A stretch of DNA of 64,000 nucleotides from Campylobacterota bacterium (GCA_030152305.1 JASKOM010000001.1:265174-329173); one strand, 5' to 3'; shown: positions 19,060 to 41,161, counted from the first letter of the stretch. The notes: generated by a model from the letters alone, not told the origin. Numbers and translations are program-made.

Positions 19060-19272
19060 TTATTGTAATTTCAACGAAACACTTTCATAAAGTTTTGCTT
19101 TTTTGTAAGCTTCTATATATAGCTTAATAATTTTTGGCACTTCAATATCACCAAGCACCCATCGATTAATAGTATTGGCGGTTTTATCGATATGTTCTGC
19201 GAAATCTTTTTGGGTCATTCCAATAGCTTTTAATTCGGCTTTCAAATCAAACTCTTTTTTTATTTCCTCCAT
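19060..19272 (-). CDS. XRE/Cro-type helix-turn-helix protein (H6, orphan)
   Basis: 70 aa. GMTQKDFAEHIDKTANTINRWVLG is an HTH_3 pattern. The first 25 aa are near-identical to H5 (20275-20499). Confidence 0.8.
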   Translation of the reverse strand: MEEIKKEFDLKAELKAIGMTQKDFAEHIDKTANTINRWVLGDIEVPKIIKLYIEAYKKAKLYESVSLKLQ

Positions 19273-19337
19273 TTAACACCTTTCACAATTTTTCGTAATT
19301 TTAATATTTTTGGCTTTTCGATTGTCATCCCAAACCA

Positions 19338-19404
19338 GTCATCCCGAATTTATTTCGGGATCTAATTAATTTGAAAAAAGATTCTAAAATGAATTCATGG
19401 CGAC
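19338..19404 (+). repeat. palindromic repeat element, copy E4 plus an inverted partner
   Basis: GTCATCCCGAATTTATTTCGGGATC (19338-19362), the spacer TAATTAATTTGAAAAAA, and an inverted degenerate copy GATTCTAAAATGAATTCATGGCGAC (19380-19404). Confidence 0.75.
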
Positions 19405-19414
19405 GAAAAGTTTA

Positions 19415-20167
19415 TTAAACAATCGTTTTTATTTTCCACTTGATTTGATTAAACTTACCAACGATCGCAATTCCAAATTCTTCACCCGATGAGGTCATTT
19501 TCCAAATTCCATTTTCTTTAACTTGAAAACCTTTATGAGCTAACATCAAATTAATTTCGACAGGACTTTTGTTAATCATTTTGCCTAATTCAGTCGGAAG
19601 AAAGAATTGCGAATCAAGCTCTATTTCAAAATATTCAAGAACTGAAAAGTTATGAAACTTTCGATAAAACTTATCAAGTCGAAATAAATCGATTGGATTT
19701 GCATTTCGTAAATTTGCGAGTAAGTTTGTTGTTGCTGTGAAATTGTTATCAAGTTCGATTATCTGTTCAGTTGAATTTCCAATTTCTGGAAGTTGAGAAG
19801 TTTGAATTTGCGGTTTCTGATTTTGTAAAAGCTCTCGCATTCTAAAGAATTCCCCAACTAAACGGACTTTAAAATCTAAAACGATGTCGTTATTTCTCAT
19901 CATTGAAATTAGTAAAGTTGCTTGTTGCTCGTTGAGATAGAAAGTTTTAGCAGGTCTATAATTTGGATTAAGTTTTTGCTGTTCTTTTATTTCAAATTCG
20001 CCCTCGATTTTAAATCGCATCCGATCAAAAAGCTCGAATTTATCGATATTTGAAGTAATTAATTTAGGAATACTTCGCTCTAAGTTTTGTGTTTGTTCAG
20101 CGATAACTCGATGAGAAATTTGTGGTTCGTTGTCGATGAGTTCGACTAAGTTTGTTATAATTTCCAT
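19415..20167 (-). CDS. Rha-type N-terminal domain + KilAC/ANT-type C-terminal domain protein (R5)
   Basis: 250 aa. LVELIDNEPQISHRVIAEQT...TFYLNEQQATLLISMMRNNDIVLDFKVRLVGEFFRMRE is Rha-like. The C-terminal FFLPTELGKMINKSPVEINLMLAHKGFQVKENGIWKMTSSGEEFG is KilAC-like. Confidence 0.75.
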   Translation of the reverse strand: MEIITNLVELIDNEPQISHRVIAEQTQNLERSIPKLITSNIDKFELFDRMRFKIEGEFEIKEQQKLNPNYRPAKTFYLNEQQATLLISMMRNNDIVLDFKVRLVGEFFRMRELLQNQKPQIQTSQLPEIGNSTEQIIELDNNFTATTNLLANLRNANPIDLFRLDKFYRKFHNFSVLEYFEIELDSQFFLPTELGKMINKSPVEINLMLAHKGFQVKENGIWKMTSSGEEFGIAIVGKFNQIKWKIKTIV

Positions 20168-20274
20168 TGATGTTTCCTAATCTGGAGATCTAAATTTGAA
20201 TTGAGTGTGTTTTGAAAGCCTAGCTCAATTCTAATGAAAATTATAGCCTAAAAAGATAAAAAAAAATCCTTTAA

Positions 20275-20499
20275 TTATACTTTAATGAAAAACTGTTGTT
20301 TTATAATTTCGTCAAGTGTTTTTGCTTTTTTGTAATTTTCAATTAATCGCTCGACCCATTTTGGCATTAATAAATCGCCTGTAATCCATCTACTGACTGT
20401 ATTATGATTAATTTCTGTATATTTTGCGAAATCTTTTTGAGTCATTCCAAGAGCTTTTAATTCGGCTTTCAAATCAAACTCTTTTTTTATTTCCTCCAT
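20275..20499 (-). CDS. XRE/Cro-type helix-turn-helix protein (H5)
   Basis: 74 aa. GMTQKDFAKYTEINHNTVSRWITG. Lies immediately upstream of R5 on the same strand. Confidence 0.8.
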   Translation of the reverse strand: MEEIKKEFDLKAELKALGMTQKDFAKYTEINHNTVSRWITGDLLMPKWVERLIENYKKAKTLDEIIKQQFFIKV

Positions 20500-20550
20500 T
20501 TAACACCTTTCCCAATTTTTCGTAATTTTAATATTTTTGGTTTTTCGATT

Positions 20551-20591
20551 ATCATCCCGAAGCGATAGCTCCTGTAATTCATTTCAGGATC
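20551..20591 (+). repeat. palindromic repeat element, long variant E5
   Basis: ATCATCCCGAAGCGATAGCTCCTGTAATTCATTTCAGGATC. Outer arms ATCCCGAA/TTCAGGAT enclose a small internal hairpin. Confidence 0.75.
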
Positions 20592-20650
20592 TAAAAAAAT
20601 TTTGCTACAATTCAAATCAAAAAATCTTAAATTATTTGTTTTAAATTTAT

Positions 20651-20760
20651 TTCAATAAGGCTTACCAAGTGCCTACAGCATAACTCAAGCTTTCTAAGTC
20701 ATTCGGCTTGAAAGCCTTATTGAAGTAAATTTTGAAGAGTTATGCTGTGAAACTTGGTAA
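20651..20760 (+). ncRNA. candidate structured leader / c4-like antisense element upstream of AntA paralog P1
   Basis: Helix TTACCAAGT (20662-20670) / ACTTGGTAA (20752-20760) is extended by the copy-specific ACAGCATAACTC (20675-20686) / GAGTTATGCTGT (20737-20748). A competing outer helix pairs 20651-20663 with 20712-20724. Confidence 0.45.
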
Positions 20761-20821
20761 CTTTCTTAGCAACTCTTCAGCAAAAAAATTTATTTTAATT
20801 CAATAATTTACCAAGTAAAAA

Positions 20822-21754
20822 ATGATGGAAATCGTAAAAATTGTGCCTCAAAAAATTGGGGAAGAGAATTCTCAAGCTGTGTCAGCGAGAGATTTACATA
20901 AATTCTTAGGTGTCAAAAGACAATTTGCAAACTGGATTAAGGATCAGCTTAATAGAGGTAGATTTATAGAAAATATCGATTATATAGTAGCTTCAACCGT
21001 TAACATAAATGTTAACGGCAAAAATGTAACAGCCGAAGCTAATTCTACACAGCGAGATCAATCTGGTAAATTTACATCGATTGAATATTTCTTAACTCTT
21101 GAAACTGCTAAACATGTATCTTTAATGAGTGAAACAGAAAAAGGTTATGAAGTTCGAAACTATTTTATTCGGATTGAAAAAGAGTATTCAAACTTAAAAA
21201 CTCAACAAGCTATTCATGAAGCCGTTGAGCAAGAACGAAAAAATCAAAATCCAAAACTTGAGTTAATCAAAGTTCGCGGAAATGGAAAAATTATTCGAAG
21301 ATCTTTCACGGATGCAGTTAAAGATTTTGTTGTTTATGCAAAATCGCAAGGTAGTCAAAATGCTGATCGTTATTATTTAATTTTCACAATTGAAATTTAT
21401 AGAAAACTTGGCTTAATCAAAACGAATAAAGATTTTGGCAAATTAAAAAATGCGATTTCTGAAATCAAATTAAATGAACAAGATCTTAAAAAACTAGATA
21501 AGCAATTTAATTTTCGCGATGAATTAGATGTTGAAAACTTAACAGTTGTTAGTTCGTGTGAAATTATTGTTCAGCGAATTATTGAAGATGAAATGACAAA
21601 ACAGACACCTTACAAACAAATTTTTAAAATTGCAAAAGCTCAACTTTCGACAATTCAAATCGCATTCGAGCCTTATATCGCAACCGCAAAACAGCAACTT
21701 GAATTCAAAGGGACTTTGTTTGAGTTTTTATTACTTGAAAATAAAGAATCTTAG
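20822..21754 (+). CDS. AntA-type N-terminal domain + P63C-like C-terminal domain protein (P1)
   Basis: 310 aa. AVSARDLHKFLGVKRQFANWIKDQ...EYFLTLETAKHVSLMSETEKGYEVRNYFIRIEKEY is AntA/AntB-like. GKIIRRSFTDAVKDFVVYAKSQGSQNADRYYLIFTIEIYRKLG...NFRDEL is P63C-like. Confidence 0.7.
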   Translation: MMEIVKIVPQKIGEENSQAVSARDLHKFLGVKRQFANWIKDQLNRGRFIENIDYIVASTVNINVNGKNVTAEANSTQRDQSGKFTSIEYFLTLETAKHVSLMSETEKGYEVRNYFIRIEKEYSNLKTQQAIHEAVEQERKNQNPKLELIKVRGNGKIIRRSFTDAVKDFVVYAKSQGSQNADRYYLIFTIEIYRKLGLIKTNKDFGKLKNAISEIKLNEQDLKKLDKQFNFRDELDVENLTVVSSCEIIVQRIIEDEMTKQTPYKQIFKIAKAQLSTIQIAFEPYIATAKQQLEFKGTLFEFLLLENKES

Positions 21755-21759
21755 TTTCC

Positions 21760-21800
21760 GTCATCCTGAAGCGAAAGCTCCTGTAACTTGTTTCGGGATC
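21760..21800 (+). repeat. palindromic repeat element, long variant E6
   Basis: GTCATCCTGAAGCGAAAGCTCCTGTAACTTGTTTCGGGATC with an internal GC-GAAA-GC hairpin. Confidence 0.8.
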
Positions 21801-21859
21801 TAAAAAAATTTTGCTACAATTCAAATCAAAAAATTTTAAATTATTTGTTTTAAGTTTAT

Positions 21860-21967
21860 TTCAACAAGGCTTACCAGTGCCTGTCACGAACTCTTCGCTT
21901 TCTGGTCATCTTGATTGGAAAGCCTTTTTGAAGTAAATTTTGAAGATGTTTGTGACGAAACTGGTAA
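21860..21967 (+). ncRNA. candidate structured leader / c4-like element upstream of P2
   Basis: TTACCAGT (21871-21878) / ACTGGTAA (21960-21967), plus the copy-specific GTCACGAACTCTTC (21883-21896) / GAAGATGTTTGTGAC (21942-21956). Confidence 0.45.
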
Positions 21968-22027
21968 CTTCTTAGCAACTCTTCAGCCAAAAAATTTATT
22001 TTAATTCTATAATTTACCAAGTAAAAA

Positions 22028-22906
22028 ATGATGGAAATCGTAAAAATTGTGCCTCAAAAAATTGGGGAAGAGAATTCTCAAGCTGTTTCAGCGAGAGATT
22101 TATATAAATTCTTAGGTGTAAAAAGACAGTTTTCAGACTGGATCAAGGATCAAATTAACAGAGGTTTGTTTGAGGAAAACATCGATTTTATCACGAGTTC
22201 ACAAAAAAGTGAAGTCGGCCCAGTTGTCAAAGAAGTAAAAGAATATTATTTGACAATTGAAACCGCGAAGTATATTGCTTTAATGAGTAGAACAGAAAAA
22301 GGTAAAGAAGTAAAAAGATATTTTCTCAAAATCGAAAAAGAGTATTTCAATTTGAAAGTTCATGAAGCCGTTGAGCAAGAACGAAAAAATCAAAATCCAA
22401 AACTTGAGTTAATCAAAGTTCGCGGAAATGGAAAAATTATTCGAAGATCTTTCACGGATACAGTTAAAGATTTTATCGTTTATGCAAAATCGCAAGGTAG
22501 TCAAAATGCTGATCGTTATTATTTAATTTTCACAATTGAAATTTATCGAAAACTTGGCTTAATAAAAACGAATAAAGATTTTGGCAAATTGAAAAATGCG
22601 ATTTCTGAAATAAAATTAAACGATGAAGATCTTAAAAAACTAGATAAGCAATTTAATTTTCGCGATGAATTAGATGTTGAAAACTTAACCGTTGTTAGTT
22701 CGTGTGAAATTATTGTTCAGCGAATTATCGAAGACGAAATGACAAAACAGACACCTTACAAACAAATTTTTCAAATTGCAAAAGCTCAACTTGCAACAAT
22801 TTCAATCGCATTCGAGCCTTATATTGTAACCGCAAAACAGCAACTTGAATTTAAAAATACACTTTTTGAGTTTTTATTACTTGAAAATAATCCTGTTGTG
22901 AATTAA
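22028..22906 (+). CDS. AntA-type + P63C-like protein (P2)
   Basis: 292 aa. Paralog of P1 with a different segment between ENIDF and EYYLT. C-terminus is ...LLLENNPVVN, as in P4. Confidence 0.7.
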   Translation: MMEIVKIVPQKIGEENSQAVSARDLYKFLGVKRQFSDWIKDQINRGLFEENIDFITSSQKSEVGPVVKEVKEYYLTIETAKYIALMSRTEKGKEVKRYFLKIEKEYFNLKVHEAVEQERKNQNPKLELIKVRGNGKIIRRSFTDTVKDFIVYAKSQGSQNADRYYLIFTIEIYRKLGLIKTNKDFGKLKNAISEIKLNDEDLKKLDKQFNFRDELDVENLTVVSSCEIIVQRIIEDEMTKQTPYKQIFQIAKAQLATISIAFEPYIVTAKQQLEFKNTLFEFLLLENNPVVN

Positions 22907-23012
22907 TTCGTAGATTCTAAAACGAGAAGTTATTTGAAACTTGATAATTCATGACTTTATTAATCGTGTTTATCTGATAAAATTATCTAAAGTTTTATTA
23001 AAGGAGTTTTTT

Positions 23013-23351
23013 TTGAAATTATTTTCAATTGTGTTGATTTCAAGTTCTTTTTTGTTTGCTGATTTTCAGGATGAATTAGATAATGATCCTCGTGAGGCTA
23101 ACAAAAAATATATTGACAAATATAACCGTGAGTTTAATGCAAATCATTCAAAGATCAAAAAATTGTTAGATCGTAATTTAAAATGTTTGGAAGGAACTGA
23201 AAAAATTGCGAGTAATCTTAAATGCTATTCGGTTTATTTATCGATTACGGAGTTAAAAGAGAAAAAGCATGTTGATCAAGCTTTGATAGATCAACTTGAA
23301 ACACATTGTCCAGATTGGAAAGATTATCAAGTCGAGGAGTGCGAAAAATGA
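23013..23351 (+). CDS. small secreted protein, unknown function
   Basis: TTG start at 23013 lies 7 nt after AAAGGAG and gives MKLFSIVLISSSFLFADF (signal peptide). The ORF-track start at 22941 has no RBS. Confidence 0.5.
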   Translation: MKLFSIVLISSSFLFADFQDELDNDPREANKKYIDKYNREFNANHSKIKKLLDRNLKCLEGTEKIASNLKCYSVYLSITELKEKKHVDQALIDQLETHCPDWKDYQVEECEK

Positions 23352-23920
23352 AAAAAATATTTTTAGCGATGTCGTTGCCAATTTCACTTTTGGCTACGGA
23401 TATTAGCAATTATAAACAGCCTGAACGAGTAGAATCTCAACAAGAAAAGTTAAATAAAGCTAAACAACAAAAAGAAGAAATTCGTAGAAAATTAAGCGAG
23501 ATTCCGGGGCTTCAAAAAAAGATAATTGCAATGCAAGAAACTATAAAAAGAGCTTCAGATCATCAGCGAAAATTAGCTGACACATATGCAAAAGCTAATA
23601 AATTTTGCGAAGAACAAAAGGCAAAAAACGAGCTAAAAGGCATGAAATATACTCATATAGAAAAAATTTATAAAGATTGTCAAGAAGAAATGAAATTAGA
23701 TGATATTTTTTCGTCAGATCAACATAATCAGTTAATGACTGATATAAAGTCGTTTAAACAAGCTATTCAGACACATATTGAAGAAAGTGATGCTCTTGTT
23801 AATAAAAAAGAGGCTCTTGAAATGAAAGAGACTTATATAAGTGAAGCTATTTTAATGCTTGAAGAATCTGTTAATAATCCTGATGGTAGTAAATCAGACA
23901 ATGAAAAAGAATCAAAATAA
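23348..23920 (+). CDS. secreted coiled-coil protein
   Basis: The ATG at 23348 overlaps the previous stop as ATGA. MKKIFLAMSLPISLLATD is a signal peptide. The sequence is homologous to the N-terminal ~150 aa of the 27078-28703 product (KLS.IPGL, KKE.LEM.E.Y.SEA..MLE). Confidence 0.6.
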   Translation: MKKIFLAMSLPISLLATDISNYKQPERVESQQEKLNKAKQQKEEIRRKLSEIPGLQKKIIAMQETIKRASDHQRKLADTYAKANKFCEEQKAKNELKGMKYTHIEKIYKDCQEEMKLDDIFSSDQHNQLMTDIKSFKQAIQTHIEESDALVNKKEALEMKETYISEAILMLEESVNNPDGSKSDNEKESK

Positions 23921-23923
23921 TAG

Positions 23924-24999
23924 ATGAGGTATTTAATGAAATTCAATAAAATAAAAATTGCGGTTATATTTAGTGTATTATCAGCAATTGAATTAAGCGG
24001 TGGAAATTATAATTTAAGTTGTGGCAATGTTCCAGATGATGCTATTGAGGAACTTAATAATTTAATAACAGATGAAAAAACAGCACCAATGGAAATGGTG
24101 TTTTTGGTGTGGATGTTGGTTTTAAAAAAACTGGTGATTTATATATTGGTTTCTTTTCTTTAAATCAAAACAACATAGCTGAATATAAACAACATGTTTT
24201 TAACGGACGAGAAAACAAAGAACCTCATCGTGTTGAATATGCTTTGTCAGATAAATATTCAACAACGGTTGAAAAATATTATTATTCAAAAGATCCGCTT
24301 TCTATTATTGTGTTTGCTAACGATCAAGTTTTTGATGTTCCTGTTGCAAAACTTGGACTAAACAATAAAGATTCAATTTTTGTTCTTGGCAATGAAATAG
24401 CTTTAAAGCTTGATATTGGCGGTAACAATAAAAAAGCACCTGATTATGAAAATTATTTAAATTCAGAAGAAATCAAAACTGCTCAAAATCAAGCAAAAGC
24501 ACGAGCTGATGAAGCCGAAGCAAATGAAAAACGAGAAAAAGCAAAAATTCAAGCTACAAAAATAAGTTCTGGTGGTGGAAAATCAGATGCTGGTTCAGGT
24601 TCAAATAATCATCCAACTGATTACGACACGGTTAAACAGCCAAAAGAAGACGAATATCGAGAAAAAGGAAATAAAAAAGCTGAAAGTGAAGAACAAGAAC
24701 AATCTCCTCAATCTTAAAAACCTGACTGCACAACCCCAATAAATGTGGCTATAAAAAACATTAACGGTAATAAAACTTGTGCTACTACAAAGTGGGAAGA
24801 TTTTAAAAAAGGTTTTAATGATAATTTTGAATTTGATTCGAATAAACAAGCATATAAAGTAAAAAAAGCTGAAGCACTAAGCTCACCTAACTGTAAAAAT
24901 GATGATTATGTGCAATTTTTTGATGGTAGTAAAGGTAGTAAAGGTTGCCAACTTTCAAATGCACAAATTGCTGAAGCTATAAATTTTAGCAAAAAATAA
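23924..24999 (+). pseudogene. disrupted secreted-protein gene (1 frameshift + 1 in-frame TAA)
   Basis: The signal-peptide ORF (23924-) changes frame at the A6 run 24075-24080; an A7 would join it to ...NSTNGNGVFGVDVGFKKTG. An in-frame TAA at 24715-24717 separates 24109-24717 from 24745-24999. The paralog 27078-28703 reads straight through the equivalent point. Confidence 0.65.
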
Positions 25000-25934
25000 T
25001 GAACATATTTATTAAAAAGTTTTTTACACTTAGCATAAGTTTATCAACGATGCTATTTGCTGATTTTTCTGAAGAATCAAATAAAAAAGAACAAGATCAA
25101 GATGTTGAAACTTTGATTAAAGAATATCAAAAATATAAAAATAGTGATGTTCAAGAAGTTCAAGATAATCAAAACGAAAACGAGCCTGTCGAAGAATTGC
25201 CAAAAGCTAAAAAGCCACAAACTAAAACTTCGTCAAATCCAGAAATTCAAGCTCTAAAAGATGAATATACAAAATATAAAAATGCAGTCGAATCTGATAT
25301 TAACATAGTTAAAAATGGTCAAATTAACGAATTGCCTGAATTAAAAAAATTGGCAATAAAACCTGATTTGCAAATTACTATCGATGCAATCGAAGAAGGA
25401 GCTCAAAAAAAAGCTCTTCAATCTGATGCCTATTTATATTTAAAACGATGGTTTTTACTTGCTGATGAGGTCGATAGTGAAGATAAAGAGACTTTATTTT
25501 ATTTAATACTCGATTCTCATTTTAAACAAAACATGGCTGAAGTCGAATCTTTGACAATTAATGAAGATTTTATTTCAGATCAAGAATTCATGGATTTTAT
25601 TAAATTGGGCTATGACGAATATATGGAATATTTAACAATGATCGCGGAAGATTTCGGTGATATCGATGAAAAATATTACAACAAAATAAAATATCGAGTT
25701 ACATCAAAAGGTGGTTTGAGTGTTCAAAAAGATCCATTAACAGGAATTGAACTCAAAAGCAAAAAAGTTATTCCAAATAAAGCAATAGTTTATGTCAAAT
25801 ATTCAACTCGAGGATCTGATAAAAATTTCAAAAATTCATTTAATAAAAAGTTTGCCAAAATCGAATATGAAACCGACGATGAAAAAATAATTGGTTGGGT
25901 TGATTTCAAATCGTTAGTCAAAAAAAACAGATAA
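24999..25934 (+). CDS. secreted protein with possible C-terminal SH3b-like domain
   Basis: 311 aa. Signal peptide MNIFIKKFFTLSISLSTMLFA, an acidic/Q-rich N-terminal region, and C-terminal ...AKIEYETDDEKIIGWVDFKSLVKK. Confidence 0.5.
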   Translation: MNIFIKKFFTLSISLSTMLFADFSEESNKKEQDQDVETLIKEYQKYKNSDVQEVQDNQNENEPVEELPKAKKPQTKTSSNPEIQALKDEYTKYKNAVESDINIVKNGQINELPELKKLAIKPDLQITIDAIEEGAQKKALQSDAYLYLKRWFLLADEVDSEDKETLFYLILDSHFKQNMAEVESLTINEDFISDQEFMDFIKLGYDEYMEYLTMIAEDFGDIDEKYYNKIKYRVTSKGGLSVQKDPLTGIELKSKKVIPNKAIVYVKYSTRGSDKNFKNSFNKKFAKIEYETDDEKIIGWVDFKSLVKKNR

Positions 25935-25970
25935 AACACAAAACAAAAATCCAAAACTAAAAGAATATAA

Positions 25971-27071
25971 ATGATATTAAAAACAAAATCTTTTATATTT
26001 TTCGCTATTTTTTTGACCTCATCGGTATTATTAAATGCCGAAGGTTCTCATTTTATTTTTAATTCTAATGTTGTTGAAAAAAGAAAAACTTTACAACAAG
26101 AATTAAAAATACTCGATGAAAAAGTCGTCAAATTATTTAATCTCGAAAAAGAATTAAATAATAAACAGCTATTAAACAAACATGAAATAAGCGAAAAACA
26201 GGCTGAACAAAAAGAACTTTTGTCTCAAATTAAATTTTACGATATAAAAAAATTATCTATCGATTATCTTAACGAACATATAAACATCGAACTTTTAAAA
26301 TCAAAAAGTTTTGAAAAACAATTAAATAATTTTTCTTTCTACGACACGAAATATAATAATTTATTTAATTTTTATATGAACGAAAATCAAGACGGCATGA
26401 CAAAATGTCTCAAATTCGAAAAATCTTTTAATTTTAAAGTTTCTCAAGATTATCGAGATTTAGAATCAACTAAACAAATAAAAGACACTTTTTTATATTT
26501 TGAAAATTTAATTTATTACACAAATATAAAAATTCGCAAATTAGATCGTGGAGATTATTATGATCGTTATGACGAATTACCTTCGAAAGCTATTTTAAAA
26601 GAATTTGTAAATTATATAAATAGCAAACAAAAAGAATTAATCTCATTTTTATATACTCAATTTTATGAACTTGCCTTTTTAAAACATCGAAATATTTCAT
26701 TTTTATTTGGCTTAAATATTTATTTAAACAGCGATAAAAATTTAATAATCGAATATTACGGCATCGATTCTGAACAAAATTACAAAACTGATCATATTTA
26801 TATTCCCGCTGAATCTATTGGTAAAGATATAAAAAATAATTTAGTCATGAAAACAGTTTATACAGCAAATCGAAAAGAACCTACAAATGTTATTATGACT
26901 TATCAAAATTATGAATATTGGCTTCCTGTAACTCTTTTTGCTAATCATACTTCAGCTCAAATTATCAAAAATGAACTTGATTTTTGGATTTTTAAAAATA
27001 ATATTAGTCCAGCTCGAAGTTTCATTCGAGAGCAATATATACAACTGTTCAAAAATAAAGTCGAGGATTAA
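25971..27071 (+). CDS. secreted protein, unknown function
   Basis: 366 aa with a signal peptide (FIFFAIFLTSSVLLNAEG) and an N-terminal coiled coil. Confidence 0.5.
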   Translation: MILKTKSFIFFAIFLTSSVLLNAEGSHFIFNSNVVEKRKTLQQELKILDEKVVKLFNLEKELNNKQLLNKHEISEKQAEQKELLSQIKFYDIKKLSIDYLNEHINIELLKSKSFEKQLNNFSFYDTKYNNLFNFYMNENQDGMTKCLKFEKSFNFKVSQDYRDLESTKQIKDTFLYFENLIYYTNIKIRKLDRGDYYDRYDELPSKAILKEFVNYINSKQKELISFLYTQFYELAFLKHRNISFLFGLNIYLNSDKNLIIEYYGIDSEQNYKTDHIYIPAESIGKDIKNNLVMKTVYTANRKEPTNVIMTYQNYEYWLPVTLFANHTSAQIIKNELDFWIFKNNISPARSFIREQYIQLFKNKVED

Positions 27072-27077
27072 ACTTTT

Positions 27078-28703
27078 ATGAAAATCATATTTTCGTTTTT
27101 TATATTTATTGGTCTATTATTTAGTGAAGATATTAATCAAAATAAAACAAAATTAAATCAACTCAAAACTAAACGAGATGAAATTCGCGGAAAATTAAGT
27201 CAAATTCCAGGTTTGGAACAAAAAATGAAAGAAATGAAAGCTAAGATCGAAAAGGTTTCAAAAAGTGCTCAAAAAATGCAGGAAATTAAAGCCAGATTAG
27301 ATAAATTAGAACATTCAACATCTTTTGATAATCAACACGAAGAATATATGTTATCAGCTGAAAATTTCAAAGATAGCTTAAAACAACATATTCAAAAAAA
27401 TGCAGTGATTTTTAATGAACTTATGGATAAAAAAGAATCTTTAGAAATGGTTGAACAATATACAAGTGAAGCCGTTGCAATGCTTGAAGATATGATAAAT
27501 AAACCTTATGAAAAAATTGATTATGAACAAGCAAGAAAAGAATCTGAAGCTAAAGCCGAACGATCAAAAAAACAAGCCGAAGCAAAAGCACGAGCTGAAG
27601 CCGAAGAAAATGAAAAACGAGAAAAAGCAAAAATTCAAGCTACAAAAATAGGTTCTGGTGGTGTAAAATCAGATGCTAGTTGTAGTTTGAATCATCCAAC
27701 TGATTATGACACAGTTAAACAACAAAAAGAAGATGAATATCGTGAACAACCAAAAGAAGACGAATATCGAGAAAAAGGAAATAAAGAAGCTGAAAACGAA
27801 GCAAATCAACATTCTTCTCAATCTCCTAATGATTGTAAAGAAACCCCAAAAAATGTGGCTATAAAAAATATTAACGGTAATAAAACTTGTGCTACTACAA
27901 ATTGGAAAAATTTTAAAGAAGGTTTTAATTCTGTTTTTGAATTTGATTCGAATAAACAAGCATATCAAGTAAAAAAAGCTGAAGCACTTTCTTCACCTAA
28001 CTGTCGAAATGGTGATTATGTGCAATTTTTTGATAACAGTAATATTTGCCAACTTTCAAATGAACAAATTAGCGAGGCAATAAATAGTAATTATCGTAGT
28101 TTGAATCATCCAACTGATTACGACACGGTTAAAGCTACAAAAATAGGTTCTGATGGTGAAAAATCAAATGCTGGTTCAAATTCACCAAATTATTCAACTA
28201 ATTACGACACAGTTAAAGCTACAAAAATAGGTTCTGGTGGTGAAAAATCAAATGCTGGTTCAAATTCACCAAATTATTCAACTAATTACGACACAGTTAA
28301 AGCTACAAAAATAGGTTCTGGTGGTGAAAAATCATATGCTGGTTCAAATAATTATTCATATGATTATGACACTGTTAAACAGCCAAAAGAAGACGAATAT
28401 CGCGAACAAGGAAATAAAGAAGCTGAAACATATTCTAACGATTGTAAAGAATTCCCAAGAAAAATTGCAATCAAACATCTTGACGGTGAGAAATGTGCAA
28501 CTGTTGTTACAAAACTATCTTTTCAAGAAAATTTCAATCTTGATTTCGAAGCTGTTCGTGGAAAACAAAGAACATATCGAGTCAAAAATCAACAAACAGA
28601 TTGTAAAGTCGGTGAGCAAATTCAATTTTTTGATGCTAACAAAGATTGCCAACTTTCAAATGATCAAATAGCTGAAATTATAAATTTTAGCAAAAATAAA
28701 TAA
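27078..28703 (+). CDS. secreted modular repeat protein
   Basis: 541 aa: signal peptide, coiled coil, a charged AKARAEAEENEKREKAK segment, NHPTDYDTVK motifs, two copies of a ~80-aa Cys-containing module (...KTCATTNWKNFKEGFN...CQLSNEQISEAIN), and three 28-aa tandem repeats. Confidence 0.6.
   Translation: MKIIFSFFIFIGLLFSEDINQNKTKLNQLKTKRDEIRGKLSQIPGLEQKMKEMKAKIEKVSKSAQKMQEIKARLDKLEHSTSFDNQHEEYMLSAENFKDSLKQHIQKNAVIFNELMDKKESLEMVEQYTSEAVAMLEDMINKPYEKIDYEQARKESEAKAERSKKQAEAKARAEAEENEKREKAKIQATKIGSGGVKSDASCSLNHPTDYDTVKQQKEDEYREQPKEDEYREKGNKEAENEANQHSSQSPNDCKETPKNVAIKNINGNKTCATTNWKNFKEGFNSVFEFDSNKQAYQVKKAEALSSPNCRNGDYVQFFDNSNICQLSNEQISEAINSNYRSLNHPTDYDTVKATKIGSDGEKSNAGSNSPNYSTNYDTVKATKIGSGGEKSNAGSNSPNYSTNYDTVKATKIGSGGEKSYAGSNNYSYDYDTVKQPKEDEYREQGNKEAETYSNDCKEFPRKIAIKHLDGEKCATVVTKLSFQENFNLDFEAVRGKQRTYRVKNQQTDCKVGEQIQFFDANKDCQLSNDQIAEIINFSKNK
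28134..28379 (+). repeat. 84-nt tandem coding repeat, about 3 units
   Basis: Units start at 28134, 28218 and 28302 and encode ATKIGSGGEKSNAGSNSPNYSTNYDTVK. The first two units are near-identical at the DNA level. Confidence 0.9.
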
Positions 28704-28783
28704 CTAACACAATTCACGACTTTATCGATAATTTATTTTTTTCGATGAGGTCCGTTTCTTCGAAACAAAATAAAATAATTAAA

Positions 28784-29701
28784 ATGGAACATAAATATAT
28801 GGGTGATCAAGCAACGGTTTTCTTAAATCAAACATCAGCAACAAACAGATCTAATAATCAATCAAATCAGTCAAATAAATTTTTCAATAAGTATCTCAAA
28901 GCTTTTCTATTTATTATATTAATAATTATTGCTAGTTCAATAACTTATTATTACGATTATCAATCAGCAAAAACTAAAGAACAGGAACAAAAAAAAGAAT
29001 CTGAACTTGAATCAGAAAAGTTAAAAAAAATCGAAGCTGAAAAATTGCAAAAATACGAATTAGAGTTAAAAAGAATCGAAGCCGAAGAATTACAAAAAGC
29101 TGAACTCGAACGACAAAGAATCGAAGCTGAAAAATTACAAAAAGCTGAACTTGAACAACAACGACTCGATGCTGAAAAATTACAACAATACGAATTAGAG
29201 TTAAAAAGAATGGAAGCCGAAGATTTTCAAAAAGCTCAACTCGAGAAACAAAGAATCGAAGCTGAAAAATTACAAAAAGCTGAACTCGAACGACAACGAA
29301 TCGAAGCTGAAAAATTAAAAAAAGCTAAACTTGAAAAACAACGAATCGAAGCTGAAAAAACCACACAACCTAAACCATCAAATAAAAATGGCATTGTTGT
29401 AATTAACGATTTAATGTTTCAAGATCAACAATTGCCAAATCAAATGAGTTGGACTGAAGCAGTAAGTTATTGCAAAAATCTAACATTTAAAGGTTATTCC
29501 GATTGGAAATTACCAGATCTTGAAGATTTAACAATTGCTTTTCAAAATAAGTCAAAATTCAAAAACTTACAACAAAGTTGGTATTGGAGCAGAACAAATC
29601 ACGATAATTTTGGTGCGAAATTCATAGATTTTCACAGCGGATTAACCGATTGGGATGTTCAAACAGCAAACGGTTTTGCTTTTTGCTCAAGAGATTTGTG
29701 A
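28784..29701 (+). CDS. membrane-anchored coiled-coil repeat protein with C-terminal DUF1566 (Lcl-C-like) domain
   Basis: One TM segment (FLFIILIIIASSITYYY), repeats of the AEKLQKAELERQRIE type, and C-terminal MSWTEAVSYCKNL...YSDWKLPDLEDL...WYWSRT. The start is uncertain. The ORF-track ATG at 28745 lies inside a GATGAGGT motif. Confidence 0.6.
   Translation: MEHKYMGDQATVFLNQTSATNRSNNQSNQSNKFFNKYLKAFLFIILIIIASSITYYYDYQSAKTKEQEQKKESELESEKLKKIEAEKLQKYELELKRIEAEELQKAELERQRIEAEKLQKAELEQQRLDAEKLQQYELELKRMEAEDFQKAQLEKQRIEAEKLQKAELERQRIEAEKLKKAKLEKQRIEAEKTTQPKPSNKNGIVVINDLMFQDQQLPNQMSWTEAVSYCKNLTFKGYSDWKLPDLEDLTIAFQNKSKFKNLQQSWYWSRTNHDNFGAKFIDFHSGLTDWDVQTANGFAFCSRDL
29040..29358 (+). repeat. 45-nt periodic coding repeat (IEAEKLQKAELERQR heptad-like units)
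   Basis: About 7 diverged units of ATCGAAGCTGAAAAATTACAAAAAGCTGAACTCGAACGACAAAGA. Confidence 0.8.
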
Positions 29702-29723
29702 AATTCAAAAAAACAGTTTTTCC

Positions 29724-29764
29724 GTCATCCTGAAGCGAAAGCTCCTGTAACTTGTTTCGGGATC
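29724..29764 (+). repeat. palindromic repeat element, long variant E7
   Basis: Identical to E6: GTCATCCTGAAGCGAAAGCTCCTGTAACTTGTTTCGGGATC. Confidence 0.8.
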
Positions 29765-29825
29765 TAATTAAAAATTTTGCTACAATTCAAATCAAAAAAT
29801 CTTAAATTATTTGTTTTAAATTTAT

Positions 29826-29946
29826 TTCAACAAGGCTTACCAGTGCCTAAGATTCAATCTTTCATACCTTCTTGCTTATCTTGAAGGTATTCTGATACAA
29901 GCCTTTTTGAAGTAAATTTTGAAGAGATTGAATCTGAAACTGGTAA
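29826..29946 (+). ncRNA. candidate structured leader / c4-like element upstream of P3
   Basis: TTACCAGT (29837-29844) / ACTGGTAA (29939-29946), copy-specific AGATTCAATCTTTC (29850-29863) / GAAGAGATTGAATCT (29921-29935), and a copy-specific inner hairpin ATACCTTC (29864-29871) / GAAGGTAT (29883-29890). Confidence 0.45.
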
Positions 29947-30005
29947 CTTCTTAGCAACTCTTCAGCCAAAAAATTTATTTTAATTCTATAATTTACCAAG
30001 TAAAA

Positions 30006-30917
30006 ATGACAGAAATCGTTCAAATTGTGCCTCAAAAAATTGGGGACGAGAATTCTCAAGTTGTGTCAGCGAGAGATTTACATAAATTCTTAGGTGTCAA
30101 AAGACAATTTGCAAACTGGATAAAAGATCAAGTGAGACGAGGTCGCTTTAAAGAGAATATCGATTATATCGTTACTCAAGAGGTTGTTAACATTAATGTT
30201 AACAACCTCAATTTAGGTGGAAGACCTTCAATTGAATATTTCTTAACTCTTGAAACTGCTAAACATGTATCTTTAATGAGTGAGACAGAAAAAGGTTATG
30301 AAGTTCGAAACTATTTTATTCGGATTGAAAAAGAGTATTTCAATTTAAAAGCTCAAGAGTTTGCTAATCAAGAATTAGAAAAATATAAACAATCTCAATC
30401 GCAAAGTCAAAATCCAAAACTTGAGTTAATCAAAGTTCGTGGAAATGGAAAAATTATTCGAAGATCTTTCACGGATGTAGTTAAAGATTTTATCGTTAAT
30501 GCAAAATCGCAAGGTAGTCAAAATGCTGATCGTTATTATTTAATTTTCACGATTGAAATTTATCGAAAACTTGGCTTGATAAAAACGAATAAAGATTTTG
30601 GCAAATTAAAAAATGCTATTTCTGAAATCAAATTGAATGAAGGCGATCTTAAACAATTAGATAAGCAATTTAACTTTCGAGATGAATTAGATGTTGAAAA
30701 CTTAACCGTTGTTAGTTCGTGTGAAATTATTGTTCAGCGAATTATCGAAACTGAAATGACAAAACAGACACCTTACAAACAAATTTTTCAAATTGCAAAA
30801 GCTCAACTTGCAACAATTTCAATCGCTTTTGAACCTTATATCGCAACTGCAAAACAGCAACTTGAATTTAAAAATACACTTTTTGAGTTTTTATTACTTG
30901 AAAATAAAGAATCTTAG
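30006..30917 (+). CDS. AntA-type + P63C-like protein (P3)
   Basis: 303 aa. Closest to P1: same FANWIKDQ and EYFLTLETAKHVSLMSETEKGYEVRNYFIRIEKEY, and the same ...ENKES end. Confidence 0.7.
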   Translation: MTEIVQIVPQKIGDENSQVVSARDLHKFLGVKRQFANWIKDQVRRGRFKENIDYIVTQEVVNINVNNLNLGGRPSIEYFLTLETAKHVSLMSETEKGYEVRNYFIRIEKEYFNLKAQEFANQELEKYKQSQSQSQNPKLELIKVRGNGKIIRRSFTDVVKDFIVNAKSQGSQNADRYYLIFTIEIYRKLGLIKTNKDFGKLKNAISEIKLNEGDLKQLDKQFNFRDELDVENLTVVSSCEIIVQRIIETEMTKQTPYKQIFQIAKAQLATISIAFEPYIATAKQQLEFKNTLFEFLLLENKES

Positions 30918-30922
30918 TTTTC

Positions 30923-30966
30923 GTCATCCTGAAGCAAACCCGTCATCCCGAATTCATTTCAGGATC
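30923..30966 (+). repeat. palindromic repeat element E8 (partial copy + full copy)
   Basis: GTCATCCTGAAGCAAACCC followed by GTCATCCCGAATTCATTTCAGGATC. Confidence 0.75.
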
Positions 30967-31027
30967 TAATTAAAAATTTTGCTACAATTCAAATCAAAAA
31001 ATTTTAAATTATTTGTTTTAAGTTTAT

Positions 31028-31148
31028 TTCAACAAGGCTTACCAAGTGCCTGTAACATAGCTCACAAGCTTTCTAGTCATTTGACTTGAAAGCCTTTTTG
31101 AAGTAAATTTTGAAGAGCCATGTTACGAAACTTGGTAACTTTCTAGCA
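31028..31148 (+). ncRNA. candidate structured leader / c4-like element upstream of P4
   Basis: TTACCAAGT (31039-31047) / ACTTGGTAA (31140-31148), plus the copy-specific GTAACATAGCTC (31052-31063) / GAGCCATGTTAC (31125-31136) with one A/C mismatch. Confidence 0.45.
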
Positions 31149-31198
31149 ACTCTTCAGCAAAAAAATTTATTTTAATTCAATAATTTACCAAGTAAAAA

Positions 31199-32116
31199 AT
31201 GATGGAAATCGTGAAAATATTGCCTCAAAAAATTGGGGAAGAGAATTCTCAAGCTGTTTCAGCGAGAGATTTACATAAGTTTTTAGGTGTAAAAAAGAAG
31301 TTTGCAGACTGGATCAAAGATCAATTTGAGAGAGGTCGTTTCGAAGAAAATATCGACTATTCCACTGTTCCCCTAAAAGGGAAGAGTGAAAAAGTAACAC
31401 TTTTTGATAATGGTTTATACCGTAACCAACACGGTCAAGTTGTAACTGTTGATTATTTTTTAACAGTTGAGACAGCTAAATTAATTGCTTTTATTAGCGA
31501 AACTGAAAAAGGTCACGAAATAAAAAAGTATTTTCTCAAAGTTGAACGAGAATATTGGGAATTAAAAATTCAGGAAGCCGTTGAGCAAGATCGAAAAAAT
31601 CACAATCCAAAACTTGAGTTAATCAAAGTTCGCGGAAATGGAAAAATTATTCGAAGATCTTTCACGGATACAGTTAAAGATTTTATCGTTTATGCAAAAT
31701 CGCAAGGTAGTCAAAATGCTGATCGTTATTATTTAATTTTCACGATTGAGATTTATAGAAAACTTGGCTTAATAAAAACGAATAAAGATTTTGGCAAATT
31801 AAAAAATGCGATTTCTGAAATAAAACTAAATGATGAAGATCTTAAAAAACTAGATAAACAATTTAACTTTCGAGATGAATTAGATGTTGAAAACTTAACA
31901 GTTGTTAGTTCATGTGAAATTATTGTTCAGCGAATTATCGAAGATGAAATGTCAAAACAAACTCACTACAAAACAATTTTTCAAATTGCAAAAGCTCAAC
32001 TTTCAACAATTCAAATCGCATTCGAGCCTTATATCGCAACTGCAAAACAGCAACTTGAATTTAAAGGGACTTTGTTTGAGTTTTTATTACTTGAAAATAA
32101 TCCTGTTGTGAATTAA
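31199..32116 (+). CDS. AntA-type + P63C-like protein (P4)
   Basis: 305 aa. C-terminal two-thirds are near-identical to P2 (...ENNPVVN end). The segment between ENIDY and DYFLT is unique. Confidence 0.7.
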   Translation: MMEIVKILPQKIGEENSQAVSARDLHKFLGVKKKFADWIKDQFERGRFEENIDYSTVPLKGKSEKVTLFDNGLYRNQHGQVVTVDYFLTVETAKLIAFISETEKGHEIKKYFLKVEREYWELKIQEAVEQDRKNHNPKLELIKVRGNGKIIRRSFTDTVKDFIVYAKSQGSQNADRYYLIFTIEIYRKLGLIKTNKDFGKLKNAISEIKLNDEDLKKLDKQFNFRDELDVENLTVVSSCEIIVQRIIEDEMSKQTHYKTIFQIAKAQLSTIQIAFEPYIATAKQQLEFKGTLFEFLLLENNPVVN

Positions 32117-37956: not shown

Positions 37957-38712
37957 TTACAAAACAGCTTTAATCTTCCACTTTAATTGACTAAACTTAC
38001 CATTTATCTCAATTCCAAAATCACGACCAGATTTTGTTAATTTCCAAACACCATTTTCACGAATTTGAAAACCTTTATGTTCGAGCATCAAATTAATCTC
38101 GACCGCTGATTTGTTGATCATTTTGCCTAATTCAGTTGGTAAGAAAAATTGATTTTCGAGATCAATCTCAAAATGTTCAAGCGGTGAAAAGTTATGAAAC
38201 TTGCGATAAAACTTATCGAGTCGGTAAAGAGTTGTTGGATTCATATTTTGTAAATTTGCAATTAACTTTTCGGTTGCCGTTAAATTATTATCAAGTTCAA
38301 TAATTTTTTCAGTTTCATTTCCAATTTCTGGAAGTTGTAGGTTTTGAGTTTGCGATTTCTTATTTTGCAAAAGTTCTCGCATTCGAAAGAATTCGCTAAC
38401 TAATCGAACTTTGAAATCTAAAACAATGTCGTTATTTCTCATCATCGAAATTAGTAAAGTTGCTTGTGCTTCGTTTAAATAGAAAGTTTTTTGTTCAACT
38501 TGCCCTCTATCTTTACCATTTTTTGTTGTTCTATCTAAACCCTCATTTTTAAAATGAATGTTTCCAAAAAACTCGAATTTATCGATGTGTTTGTTGATCA
38601 TGTTTGCGATTGAAACAGCTAAGTTTTCTGTTTTTTCTGCGATAACTCGATGAGAAATTCGAGGTTCGTTGTCGATGAGTTCGACGATATTTGTGTTAAA
38701 ATTTGAGTCCAT
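37957..38712 (-). CDS. Rha-type + KilAC-type protein (R4)
   Basis: 251 aa. IVELIDNEPRISHRVIAEKTENLAVSIANMINKHIDKFEFF... The C-terminal ~130 aa are near-identical to R1, R2 and B3. Confidence 0.75.
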   Translation of the reverse strand: MDSNFNTNIVELIDNEPRISHRVIAEKTENLAVSIANMINKHIDKFEFFGNIHFKNEGLDRTTKNGKDRGQVEQKTFYLNEAQATLLISMMRNNDIVLDFKVRLVSEFFRMRELLQNKKSQTQNLQLPEIGNETEKIIELDNNLTATEKLIANLQNMNPTTLYRLDKFYRKFHNFSPLEHFEIDLENQFFLPTELGKMINKSAVEINLMLEHKGFQIRENGVWKLTKSGRDFGIEINGKFSQLKWKIKAVL

Positions 38713-38828
38713 TTTTTATCTTTCGTAAAAAATTAAAGTTCAAGATGGAAGAGTTCCAAAAATCCGTCTTGACTGGACAATTATACTATTTTAAAATATC
38801 ATTTTCAATTTTAAGCATATAAAAATAT

Positions 38829-39083
38829 TTATCTTGTTTGAATTGCGATTAACTGACTCATGCTATTTTTAAAATTTTTAAACTCTTGCTCTTTTAGTAA
38901 TAAATTTAATGTTGTTTCAACTAAAAGTGAAATTGGTGTTTTATTATTTGCCCAATCAGAAACAGTATTTTTATTGACCCCTATTCTTTCCGCCAATTCT
39001 TTTTGAGTTATGCCCAATTCACGGCAGGTTTTTTTAACTAAGTTTTCTTGTTTGTCTTGTTCGGTTTTTTCAATTTTACTCAC
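38829..39083 (-). CDS. XRE/Cro-type HTH protein (H4)
   Basis: A GTG start at 39081-39083 follows AAAGGA and gives MSKIEKTEQDKQENLVKKTCRELGITQKELAERIGVNKNTVSDWANN... The ORF-track ATG at 39140 lies inside the last codons (KWKIKTII*) of the upstream gene. Confidence 0.7.
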   Translation of the reverse strand: MSKIEKTEQDKQENLVKKTCRELGITQKELAERIGVNKNTVSDWANNKTPISLLVETTLNLLLKEQEFKNFKNSMSQLIAIQTR

Positions 39084-39115
39084 GAATAAATCCTTTTGAT
39101 TTTCCGTAATTTTAA

Positions 39116-39874: not shown

Positions 39875-39946
39875 TTTGACCTTTAAAAATAAAATGATTA
39901 AGAAAGAAATATTTGCTGTGGTAGGTTGAATTTTCTTTCTGTTTTA

Positions 39947-40216
39947 TTATAATTGATTTAAAATCAAATTGTCAAGTTTATTTCTAAAATTTATTAATTC
40001 TGATTCAATATTTGACATTCTATTAATTTTTAATAATGCTTGAAATAATGTTTCTACTGTTTTAGGTATTTTTTGACCATTGCTCCATCGTGATAAAGCT
40101 TCTTGACTTACCCCTATTCGTTCCGCCAATTCCTTTTGAGTAATGCCTAATTCACGGCAGGTTTTTTTAACTAAGTTTTCTTGTTTGTCTTGTTCGGTTT
40201 TTTCAATTTTACTCAC
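39947..40216 (-). CDS. XRE/Cro-type HTH protein (H3)
   Basis: A GTG start at 40214-40216 follows AAAGGA and gives MSKIEKTEQDKQENLVKKTCRELGITQKELAERIGVSQEALSRWSNG... The ORF-track model (to 40366) reads through a palindromic repeat element. Confidence 0.7.
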   Translation of the reverse strand: MSKIEKTEQDKQENLVKKTCRELGITQKELAERIGVSQEALSRWSNGQKIPKTVETLFQALLKINRMSNIESELINFRNKLDNLILNQL

Positions 40217-40255
40217 GAATAAATCCTTTTGATTTTCCGTAATTTTAATATTTTT

Positions 40256-40332
40256 GGATTCTGAAACAAGTTGCAGGATGACAAGTTTTTTGTCATCCCG
40301 AAGCGATAGCTCCTGTAACTTGTTTCTGGATC
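40256..40332 (+). repeat. palindromic repeat element E10: inverted partner + long variant (MITE-like composite)
   Basis: GGATTCTGAAACAAGTTGCAGGATGAC (40256-40282), the spacer AAGTTTTTT, and GTCATCCCGAAGCGATAGCTCCTGTAACTTGTTTCTGGATC (40292-40332). AATTTTAAT is present on both sides. Confidence 0.75.
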
Positions 40333-40341
40333 TAATTTTAA

Positions 40342-41070: not shown

Positions 41071-41072
41071 GT

Positions 41073-41151: not shown

Positions 41152-41161
41152 ATCAAGAATA

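Follow-up and report, generated by a model that had tools for sequence, protein, structure and literature searches.

The AntA-type genes and their leaders

The DNA analysed here is a window of 64,000 nt from a Campylobacterota bacterium (GCA_030152305.1, JASKOM010000001.1:265174-329173), and the elements in question are four AntA-type genes on its plus strand together with the leader of about 210 nt that lies upstream of each. The genes occupy positions 20822-21754 (310 amino acids), 22028-22906 (292 amino acids), 30006-30917 (303 amino acids), and 31199-32116 (305 amino acids). An open reading frame (ORF) check of the window agreed with the starts 20822, 22028, 30006, and 31199 given in a first-pass annotation made from the sequence alone, and all four products carry the Pfam AntA domain (PF08346), scoring 69-81 bits against a cut-off of 27, with an E value of 3e-20 for the first gene.

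The leaders had been described in that annotation as near-identical blocks interrupted by hypervariable patches that are complementary to each other within each copy, and this description proved accurate. When upstream blocks of about 290 nt were aligned, the mean column identity was 86%, and the differences among the four leaders were clustered in two patches and in an inner hairpin. The coordinates quoted for the patches were correct, among them those of copy 1 (20675-20686 with 20737-20748) and copy 2 (21883-21896 with 21942-21956). We likewise recovered the coupled indel in the flanking helix, which reads TTACCAAGT/ACTTGGTAA in copies 1 and 4 and TTACCAGT/ACTGGTAA in copies 2 and 3, and the replacement of the inner hairpin in copy 3 by ATACCTTC/GAAGGTAT. 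Compared with dinucleotide shuffles, the long-helix fold of each window leader has a z-score between -3.3 and -5.8. Sequence inspection of the leaders revealed no conserved leader peptide, and no icd-like ORF was present between the leader and the AntA-type start at the window copies.

Relatives of the leader outside the window

Eleven further leaders of the same design were found in public data, giving 15 with the four window copies: 13 of the AntA type (four from the window, one designated L013, and eight from metagenomes) and two of the rep type (L038 and L049). By the protein route, the AntA homolog P0014 led to contig JAMJTX010000058.1 (L013), from the assembly of Candidatus Thiovulum karukerense, another member of the Campylobacterota (PMC9938260). 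In its diverged leader the flanking helix is unchanged, the variable helix (GATCGAACTC/GAGTTCGATC) is new, and the alternative helix covaries. A pattern search with the shared blocks yielded eight metagenome contigs with true copies. Five of them (L020, L022, L025, which is identical to L041, L029, which is identical to L043, and L030) hold one leader each and L050 holds three in tandem, all upstream of AntA genes; the Pfam AntA domain was also matched by the genes of L020, L025, and L050. The remaining two, L038 and L049, have the P1 flanking helix and a variable helix around a different interior, and here the leader precedes a gene for a plasmid initiator of the Replicase-family/PriCT_1 type. 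The leader module is thus not specific to antirepressor genes, since the same P1/P2 design also stands before plasmid rep genes.

A covariance model (R1) built from two leaders recognized exactly these 15 distinct leaders among the sequences scanned, and it found no further copy in the window. The NCBI databases contain ten close AntA paralogs and one distant paralog (P0011, 40% identity) on five contigs, which probably belong to the same assembly as the window; seven of these source-genome paralogs (P0002 and P0006-P0011) are left out of the leader set.

Beyond this group, searches returned little. In IMG/VR, the pattern TTGAAGTAAATTTTGAAGA gave two chance matches in coding regions, and neither a strict two-block pattern nor GCTTACCAAGTGCCT gave a true leader copy. 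A blastn search of phage genomes with the leader found no match, and tblastn against PLSDB detected distant relatives only, with about 25% identity for Rep and 26-42% for AntA. The sole match of the AntA protein among contigs of species-representative genomes was from the Chloroflexota (38% identical). The AntA genes P0012 (L009) and P0018 (L095) have short intergenic regions without such a leader. The distant AntA gene P0017 has a different leader (L098, 900-1050) with a long hairpin, TATATATAGGCTGCT...AGCAGCC.ACTATATATGG, whose loop holds CTCCTCCAAGTA, complementary to the ribosome-binding region TACTTGGAGG; the words CCAAGTA/TACTTGG and AAGAGT/ACTCTTCA in it are reminiscent of the window leader.

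At the protein level, viral AntA relatives have only the C-terminal domain in common with the window proteins (alignment A2). The AntA-type C-terminal domain is also common to the Rha-family protein P0019, and the C-terminal domain of P0014 instead matches the Rha-type genes of the window. The AntA-type proteins contain a hypervariable insertion inside the AntA domain between near-identical flanks (alignment A2, columns 57-92), so that a localized variable cassette occurs in both the leader and the protein of these genes.

Two mutually exclusive folds

In the first of two predicted conformations, state A, pairing between regions 2 and 4 produces a rod composed of helices P1, P2, and P3. The constant part of region 2 is the P1 5' arm, which is TTACCAAGT in copies 1 (20662-20670) and 4 (31039-31047) and TTACCAGT in copies 2 (21871-21878) and 3 (29837-29844); the corresponding P1 3' arms are ACTTGGTAA at 20752-20760 and 31130-31138 and ACTGGTAA at 21960-21967 and 29939-29946. 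As the 9-bp helix UUACCAAGU/ACUUGGUAA, P1 is invariant in all 15 leaders, with nine of nine pairs unchanged. P2 is the variable helix, different in every copy, with 6-15 bp over all leaders and 10-15 bp in those of the AntA type. Its arms are TACAGCATAACTC (20674-20686) and GAGTTATGCTGTG (20737-20749) in copy 1, TGTCACGAACTCTTC (21882-21896) and GAAGATGTTTGTGACG (21942-21957) in copy 2, AGATTCAATCTTTC (29850-29863) and GAAGAGATTGAATCT (29921-29935) in copy 3, and TGTAACATAGCTC (31051-31063) and GAGCCATGTTACG (31115-31127) in copy 4, the last pair with one A/C mismatch. The inner hairpin, P3, follows at 20687-20715, 21897-21923, 29864-29902 (the copy-specific hairpin of copy 3), and 31064-31093.

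State A is the minimum-free-energy fold in all four window copies and in most of the 15 leaders. On alignment A6 of the 15 leaders, which was fitted to the structure model and whose cells, coming from few related lineages, are not independent events, 93.8% of the cells are paired and 23 of 34 pairs have changed on both sides. These compensatory pairs fall in P2 (13 of 15) and P3 (10 of 10). None of 500 shuffles matched this result, and versions of the structure slid by one to three columns were 32-44% paired. A k-turn reading of the internal loop between P1 and P2 was dropped because tandem G-A pairs are absent.

In the second predicted conformation, state B, the partners are region 1, the first 20 nt or so, and region 3, the segment that separates P3 from the P2 3' arm. 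Their helix, called alternative (Alt), is formed by 20644-20663 with 20712-20731 in copy 1, 21853-21872 with 21920-21939 in copy 2, 29819-29838 with 29899-29918 in copy 3, and 31021-31040 with 31090-31109 in copy 4. The first-pass annotation had noticed it as a 13-bp helix that excludes the long one; the helix and the exclusion stand, and the length is in fact 18-20 bp (AATTTATTTCAATAAGGCTT/AAGCCTTATTGAAGTAAATT). In a MAFFT alignment (A3), 98.5% of the cells are paired over 18 bp, five pairs have changed on both sides, every one-sided change yields G:U, and none of 500 shuffles did as well. The helix overlaps the 3' strand of P3 by 4-7 nt, and its loop encloses the 5' arms of P1 and P2 without a linker, leaving region 2 single-stranded; therefore, it cannot coexist with P1 and P2.

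State B also includes a hairpin, P4, made by regions 4 and 5, with 93.9% pairing and compensatory changes at three pairs. In copy 1, its 5' strand is the P2 3' arm together with 20733-20736, and its 3' strand is region 5, AACTCTTCA (20771-20779); region 5 lies at 21977-21985, 29956-29964, and 31148-31156 in the other copies. An outer stem, GAAGAG(U)/(A)CUCUUC, is followed by a middle part in which the variable 3' arm pairs partially with the next segment, and an inner stem, (G/A)AAA/UUU(C/U), closes a 9-nt loop, CUUGGUAAC, which in state B presents ACUUGGUAAC. In the rep-type leaders, the downstream partner covaries with the variable 3' arm (CACTC/GAGTG in L038, ACACA/TGTGT in L049), and inclusion of more 5' sequence reveals an Alt helix of about 20 bp of unrelated sequence. 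Since Alt and P4 pairings are present in these leaders too, the interleaved 1:3 / 2:4 / 4:5 design is conserved despite the differing sequence.

The full-leader energies of state A and of Alt plus P4 are about 1-6 kcal/mol apart in most copies, and either can be the lower. Prefix folding indicated that Alt would form first (12 of 13 leaders), state A once region 4 is included (10 of 13), and Alt plus P4 once region 5 is added (9 of 13); both the prefix folding and the state energies are thermodynamic calculations and not kinetics.

This order of folding, B, then A, then B with P4, would also provide the time window required by a transcription attenuator, in which the state A rod followed by C-UUUCUU/UUUUAU would be an intrinsic terminator, Alt the antiterminator, and P4 a stabilizer of read-through behind the polymerase, so that expression would depend on how fast B changes to A during the polymerase's stay on the U-tract. 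Attenuation is used by rep leaders of the pT181 and pIP501 types, and the leaders studied here have a U-rich tract after GGUAA(C/U) in 15 of 15 cases (in the window at about 20761-20767, 21968-21973, 29947-29952, and 31139-31145) and an A-rich AAGG before P1. However, the tract is short and interrupted (an unpaired C, then three to five U), and the AT-rich stem has a whole sub-domain as its loop instead of 3-8 nt. A terminator scan called only the P3 hairpin of copy 2, and attenuation accounts neither for the conserved match between the P1 3' arm and the start region nor for the hypervariability of P2. We therefore regard an attenuator as decidedly unlikely.

The leaders were also compared with known RNA families. 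The covariance-model check for C4 (RF01695) that the first-pass annotation had proposed was run. It gave no match when the window was scanned in full at the gathering threshold, when positions 20500-22100 were scanned at E<=10, or when L020, L022, L025, and L049 were scanned at E<=1. Against all Rfam families, the leaders scanned gave only sub-threshold, microRNA-like chance matches to the hairpin. The leaders are not c4 homologs, and they constitute a previously undescribed RNA family that is absent from Rfam. Descent from the P1/P7 c4 RNA with its a and b target sites, diverged beyond detection by these searches, would fit the AntA/AntB antirepressor domain of the downstream genes and the complementary specificity segments within one leader. 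Against it stand, besides the missing C4 match in six leaders, the lack of an icd-like ORF, the single contiguous arm in place of two short loops, the different architecture with its interleaved 1:3 / 2:4 / 4:5 pairings, and the host, as C4 RNAs are known from Proteobacteria and their phages (PMC2864571); true homology has a practically negligible chance of being right. The earlier claim of an RNA switch thus fared unevenly: the mutually exclusive pairings, both with compensatory changes across independent loci, hold up, and membership in the c4 family does not. Readings as a T-box, a retron msr/msd, an integron attC site, or an invertible promoter were dropped because their defining features are absent: a reverse transcriptase and RYYYAAC/GTTRRRY cores are lacking, and the arms lie too near each other.

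Strand and molecule

Each of the 13 AntA-type leaders has exactly one TGnTAnnnT motif, an extended -10-like sequence, on its plus strand, at a distance of 32-56 nt before GGCTT; in the window, it lies at 20603-20611 and 21812-21820 (TGCTACAAT in both), 29778-29786, and 30980-30988. Both complementary arms are downstream of this single conserved motif and upstream of the AntA gene, and the predicted 5' end falls at the first helix strand in L013, L030, and L041. Among the paired columns, G:U pairs outnumber A/C mismatches by 37 to 8 in state A and by 18 to 0 in the Alt helix. Scores from the covariance model were 34-130 bits for the plus strand and did not exceed 26 bits for the minus strand. 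The differences between the arms of window copies 1 and 4 are transitions in nine of nine cases, and those between the 5' arms of L050a and L050b in four of four, as expected of evolution through wobble intermediates. Because of the promoter motif, the excess of G:U, the strand bias of the model, and the transitions, we conclude that the leader is best described as a plus-strand RNA structure and reject a DNA element.

The rejected DNA-level alternatives comprise an operator for a helix-turn-helix (HTH), AntA, or Rha protein, a recombination or inversion site, a single-strand origin, and a miniature transposable element with variable terminal repeats. What speaks for them is that promoter-proximal inverted repeats adjoin genes for DNA-binding proteins and a plasmid rep gene. 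However, the surplus of wobble pairs over A/C mismatches is the signature of a single RNA strand, the substitutions between close copies are transitions passing through wobble pairs, and two interleaved alternative helices covary. Moreover, the 50-60 bp between the arms is less than inversion would need and more than a dimeric operator would span, and P1 is identical before the unrelated AntA and Rep genes and so is not an operator of the downstream product. We give a DNA-level element very little chance.

Overall, the comparative data establish the leader, at the level of sequence, as a promoter-proximal plus-strand two-state RNA with a copy-specific helix.

The copy-specific helix

The arms of P2 differ among all 15 leaders. 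Duplexes between cognate arms have predicted energies of -13.9 to -18.3 kcal/mol in the window copies and a mean of -14.6 kcal/mol over the 15 leaders, against a mean of -3.6 kcal/mol (standard deviation 2.8) for non-cognate arms, so the joint variation of the paired patches reported for the window extends to the wider leader set. The tandem copies of L050 illustrate this: identity is 97-100% in the upstream part, the interior, the tail, and the initial 39 nt of the coding region, against 67-73% in the arms (67-71% between L050a and L050b). The window copies have the same arm-confined divergence, and the changes in specificity between co-resident copies are clustered in one stem-loop. Since divergence is concentrated in the arms, neutral compensatory drift is excluded, and selection for paralogs to differ while remaining self-complementary is indicated. 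We infer that P2 is a barcode that is kept self-complementary and has been driven apart between co-resident paralogs. Separately, we observed that in L050c the free 3' arm could pair perfectly with the L050a 5' arm.

The same evidence bears on the idea that the leader is merely a processing or stability element, in which the P1/P2 rod of 22-24 bp would be a cleavage site for RNase III or a protective 5' hairpin and any P2 that pairs would suffice. A near-perfect duplex of more than 20 bp with an internal loop would suit RNase III, the leaders sit between tandem genes, and RNase III-dependent processing of small RNAs is among the cases documented in Campylobacter (PMC8687705). However, neutral drift cannot confine the differences of leaders that are 97-100% identical to their arms, the covarying and mutually exclusive Alt and P4 helices go unexplained, and every copy has its own promoter motif, so that separation of a polycistron would be needless. 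Such a role by itself is very unlikely.

Another candidate is a cis-encoded antisense RNA. Here, a promoter on the minus strand, within the leader's 3' portion, would drive a countertranscript that pairs with the leader and blocks expression, as in ColE2 RNAI, R1 CopA, or the Pseudomonas REx-C modules, and the variable patch would be an incompatibility determinant. This would account for the selected orthogonality between co-resident copies, with complementarity arising automatically. The module precedes Replicase-family rep genes, whose relatives (ColE2 and pPT23A) use such control, and in the REx-C modules a small number of changes, grouped in one stem-loop of the putative antisense RNA, overcomes incompatibility (PMC5304414). 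Weak minus-strand -35/-10-like sites are present at 20819-20792 and 22025-21998, and minus-strand motifs of the TGnTAAATT type occur in the window and L050 copies. However, no positionally conserved minus-strand -10 was found across the 15-leader family, and none lies downstream of the structure in L013, L025, L030, L038, and L049; promoter-like matches in the window region are at chance level (8 against 6.4 expected). The plentiful plus-strand G:U pairs would be A/C mismatches in a countertranscript, the minus-strand folds are weaker in 12 of the 15 leaders, and antisense control gives no account of the mutual complementarity of the arms or of the covarying second plus-strand conformation. 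We consider this explanation unlikely, if still to be taken seriously.

A possible link to the start codon

The P1 3' arm, which is also the P4 loop, connects the two folds to translation. As ACUUGGUAA(C), it is predicted to form duplexes of -6.1 to -11.3 kcal/mol with the start region in 11 of the 15 leaders; the targets begin at -12 to -15 relative to the ATG, and the shuffle fraction is at most 0.05 in 10 of these 11. Both rep-type leaders are included, and their target covers the Shine-Dalgarno region. In most copies, ACUUGGUAA complements the sequence from roughly -15 to -7 before the start codon, which makes it a candidate anti-initiation-region element. In copy 1, the arm at 20752-20760 is complementary to the TTACCAAGT box at 20808-20816; the boxes of copies 2 to 4 lie at 22014-22022, 29993-30001, and 31185-31193. 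The first-pass annotation had placed such a box 4-5 nt before every ATG, where it is indeed found, and had proposed that it and the upstream arm compete for one partner; the complementarity of the P1 3' arm to the initiation region is present in most copies, and the box itself is only partly conserved in the relatives.

In the mechanism that we favour, state A would lock the anti-start element in P1 and leave the start region free, so that translation would be ON, and state B would display the element, which could then mask the start region and turn translation OFF. Alternatively, the loop-to-start pseudoknot of state B might activate translation. The barcode pattern would be understandable if an RNA in trans also recognized region 2 or region 4. 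This RNA might be an antisense transcript, or it might be the same leader, either as a fragment or as a second molecule. In that case, the switch of a given copy would respond to no RNA but its own, which would parallel plasmid incompatibility determinants and c4 of P1/P7. Our best explanation is that each AntA-type gene is its own transcription unit with a putative promoter, and that its leader is a two-state RNA switch of a family absent from Rfam, with this ON/OFF control and a barcode read in trans; we put the probability of this explanation as a whole at roughly 0.55.

Several observations weigh against it. The promoter, the RNA ends, and any processing have all been deduced from sequence, and the comparative support comes from a structure-fitted alignment of a few lineages, as noted above. 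The complementarity to the start region is weak in L013, L022, L025, and L029, and in copies 2 and 3 the start-proximal TTACCAAGT box does not follow the indel in P1. In nested folding, the accessibility of the start region is equal in states A and B; the loop-to-start pairing is a pseudoknot and so lies outside what nested-structure models can score. Pairing of the arms is not always kept: in L050c (4265-4370), the 3' arm is that of L050a and the 5' arm differs at three positions, which weakens state A (-34.6 against -50.0 kcal/mol) and predicts that this copy is locked in state B. Finally, a search of the window for further copies of either variable arm gave chance-level 10-mers only, and no trans-acting partner was found there.

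A bolder version of the switch model is that the leaders are mutually orthogonal, self-addressed riboregulators, in which trans pairing by a leader fragment or a second leader molecule, through the nucleation site P1 and the P2 barcode, might flip the ON and OFF folds of the cognate copy only. They would then provide private dosage control or immunity for about 11 co-resident paralogs and for rep genes, with the barcodes under diversifying selection as in plasmid incompatibility groups, though within one chromosome. We offer this version tentatively, as one with a real but minority chance of being correct.

Neighbouring features

The window has 30% G+C and Shine-Dalgarno sequences of the AGGA type, which, together with a PglB homolog (see below), suits a Thiovulum-like genome of the Campylobacterota. 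Directly upstream of each AntA leader promoter lies an intergenic hairpin repeat, GTCATCCyGAA(...)TTCGGGATC (repeat families D14 and D20), which may be a repetitive extragenic palindromic (REP)-like element or a terminator; its sites are 20553-20592, 21762-21801, 29726-29765, 30921-30970, 40281-40337, 19338-19362, and 41464-41490. Between the two pairs of AntA genes, the segment 22941-29701 contains ORFs without a family match, the last of which has an Lcl C-terminal domain. Tandem repeats of 45 nt occur within these ORFs at 28974-29404, and others of 84 nt around 28091-28359; the ORFs also share modules of the repeat families D3, D7, D9, D12, D15, and D18.

A second array of paralogs consists of five Rha-type genes (19415-20167, 37957-38712, 39116-39874, 40342-41070, and 41539-42297), each after a small HTH-like ORF; it spans 37957-43076 on the minus strand and 19060-20499, and includes the repeat families D1, D6, and D10. 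Two Rha-type leaders on the minus strand (41063-41135 and 42290-42375) fold with the Shine-Dalgarno region paired to a segment upstream of it (UAUCUCCAA...UUGGAGAUA; UUUGC.CCA...UGG.AGCAAA). They differ from each other by compensatory changes and have z-scores of -3.2 and -1.3. Just upstream, at about 41129-41152, there is a perfect 22-bp palindrome, TTATATAGAATATATTCTATATAA. Elsewhere, the window carries a cluster of four tRNA genes (8260-8649) and a homolog of PglB-type oligosaccharyltransferases (51101-53281).

Significance and comparison with known systems

Our results add a well-supported structured RNA family, absent from Rfam, to the poorly studied, uncultured Thiovulum-like Campylobacterota, and they suggest copy-specific RNA control of genes for regulators of mobile elements. 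The design is unusual in combining near-isoenergetic, interleaved long helices (1:3 against 2:4) with a helix that is re-invented in each paralog. The arm-confined divergence of tandem copies is a clear signature of selection for orthogonality at the RNA level inside one genome. Should an RNA in trans read the barcode, these leaders would be naturally evolved orthogonal riboregulators, which would bear on how multiple related regulators of mobile elements coexist without cross-talk and could serve as parts for synthetic biology.

In the immI region of phages P1 and P7, the c4 antisense RNA is associated with icd-ant, according to the accounts available for that system (Citron and Schuster 1990, 1992, via PMC8546580 and PMC8201110; RF01695). 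The leaders described here resemble it in having a regulatory segment and a complementary partner in the same leader upstream of an antirepressor-type gene, in having short specificity sequences that differ between relatives and are compensated on both sides, and in offering one segment alternative upstream and downstream partners. They differ in lacking homology of sequence or structure and an icd-like ORF. In c4, two short loop sequences pair with the icd ribosome-binding site, whereas here the partner of the 6-15-nt arm is another arm upstream, and the match to the start region is confined to the constant P1 arm and does not involve the variable arm. Further differences lie in the hosts, which are Campylobacterota, and in the downstream genes, which include rep genes. 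A c4-like logic of copy-specific RNA pairing is plausible nonetheless.

The IncI-alpha and IncB repZ-type leaders are another relevant case, in which a pseudoknot between a loop and the ribosome-binding site activates translation, depends on the translation of a leader peptide, and is blocked by Inc RNA. The present leaders share with them a hairpin loop complementary to sequence just upstream of the start codon and alternative folds that may gate translation; unlike them, they have no leader peptide. Closer in host are the type I toxin leaders of Helicobacter (aapA/IsoA), for which successive metastable and stable structures that sequester the translation start, both while the RNA is being made and afterwards, are described (PMC6733600). 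These belong to the same phylum and have in common with the present leaders such a succession of structures, which for the latter is predicted, but they precede small toxin ORFs, have a dedicated antisense RNA, and share neither a hypervariable barcode helix nor sequence with the leaders of this study.

Like the ColE2 RNAI/Rep leader and the Pseudomonas REx-C module (PMC5304414), the leader is a self-contained structured unit placed before non-homologous genes, namely AntA and Replicase-family rep genes here and genes of four Rep families in the case of REx-C. As in the antisense modules of theta plasmids, co-resident copies differ by few changes in one stem-loop, and these are compensated between the arms. 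Unlike in those modules, no conserved opposite-strand promoter, leader peptide, or sequence similarity was found, the variable part is a long intramolecular helix and not mainly a loop, and most copies are chromosomal, in arrays of genes resembling phage regulators. By analogy of design, the portable antisense-type control modules of plasmid replicons (PMC5304414) are the nearest conceptual relatives of these leaders, and the occurrence of one module before both AntA and plasmid rep genes extends such portable control beyond plasmid replicons.

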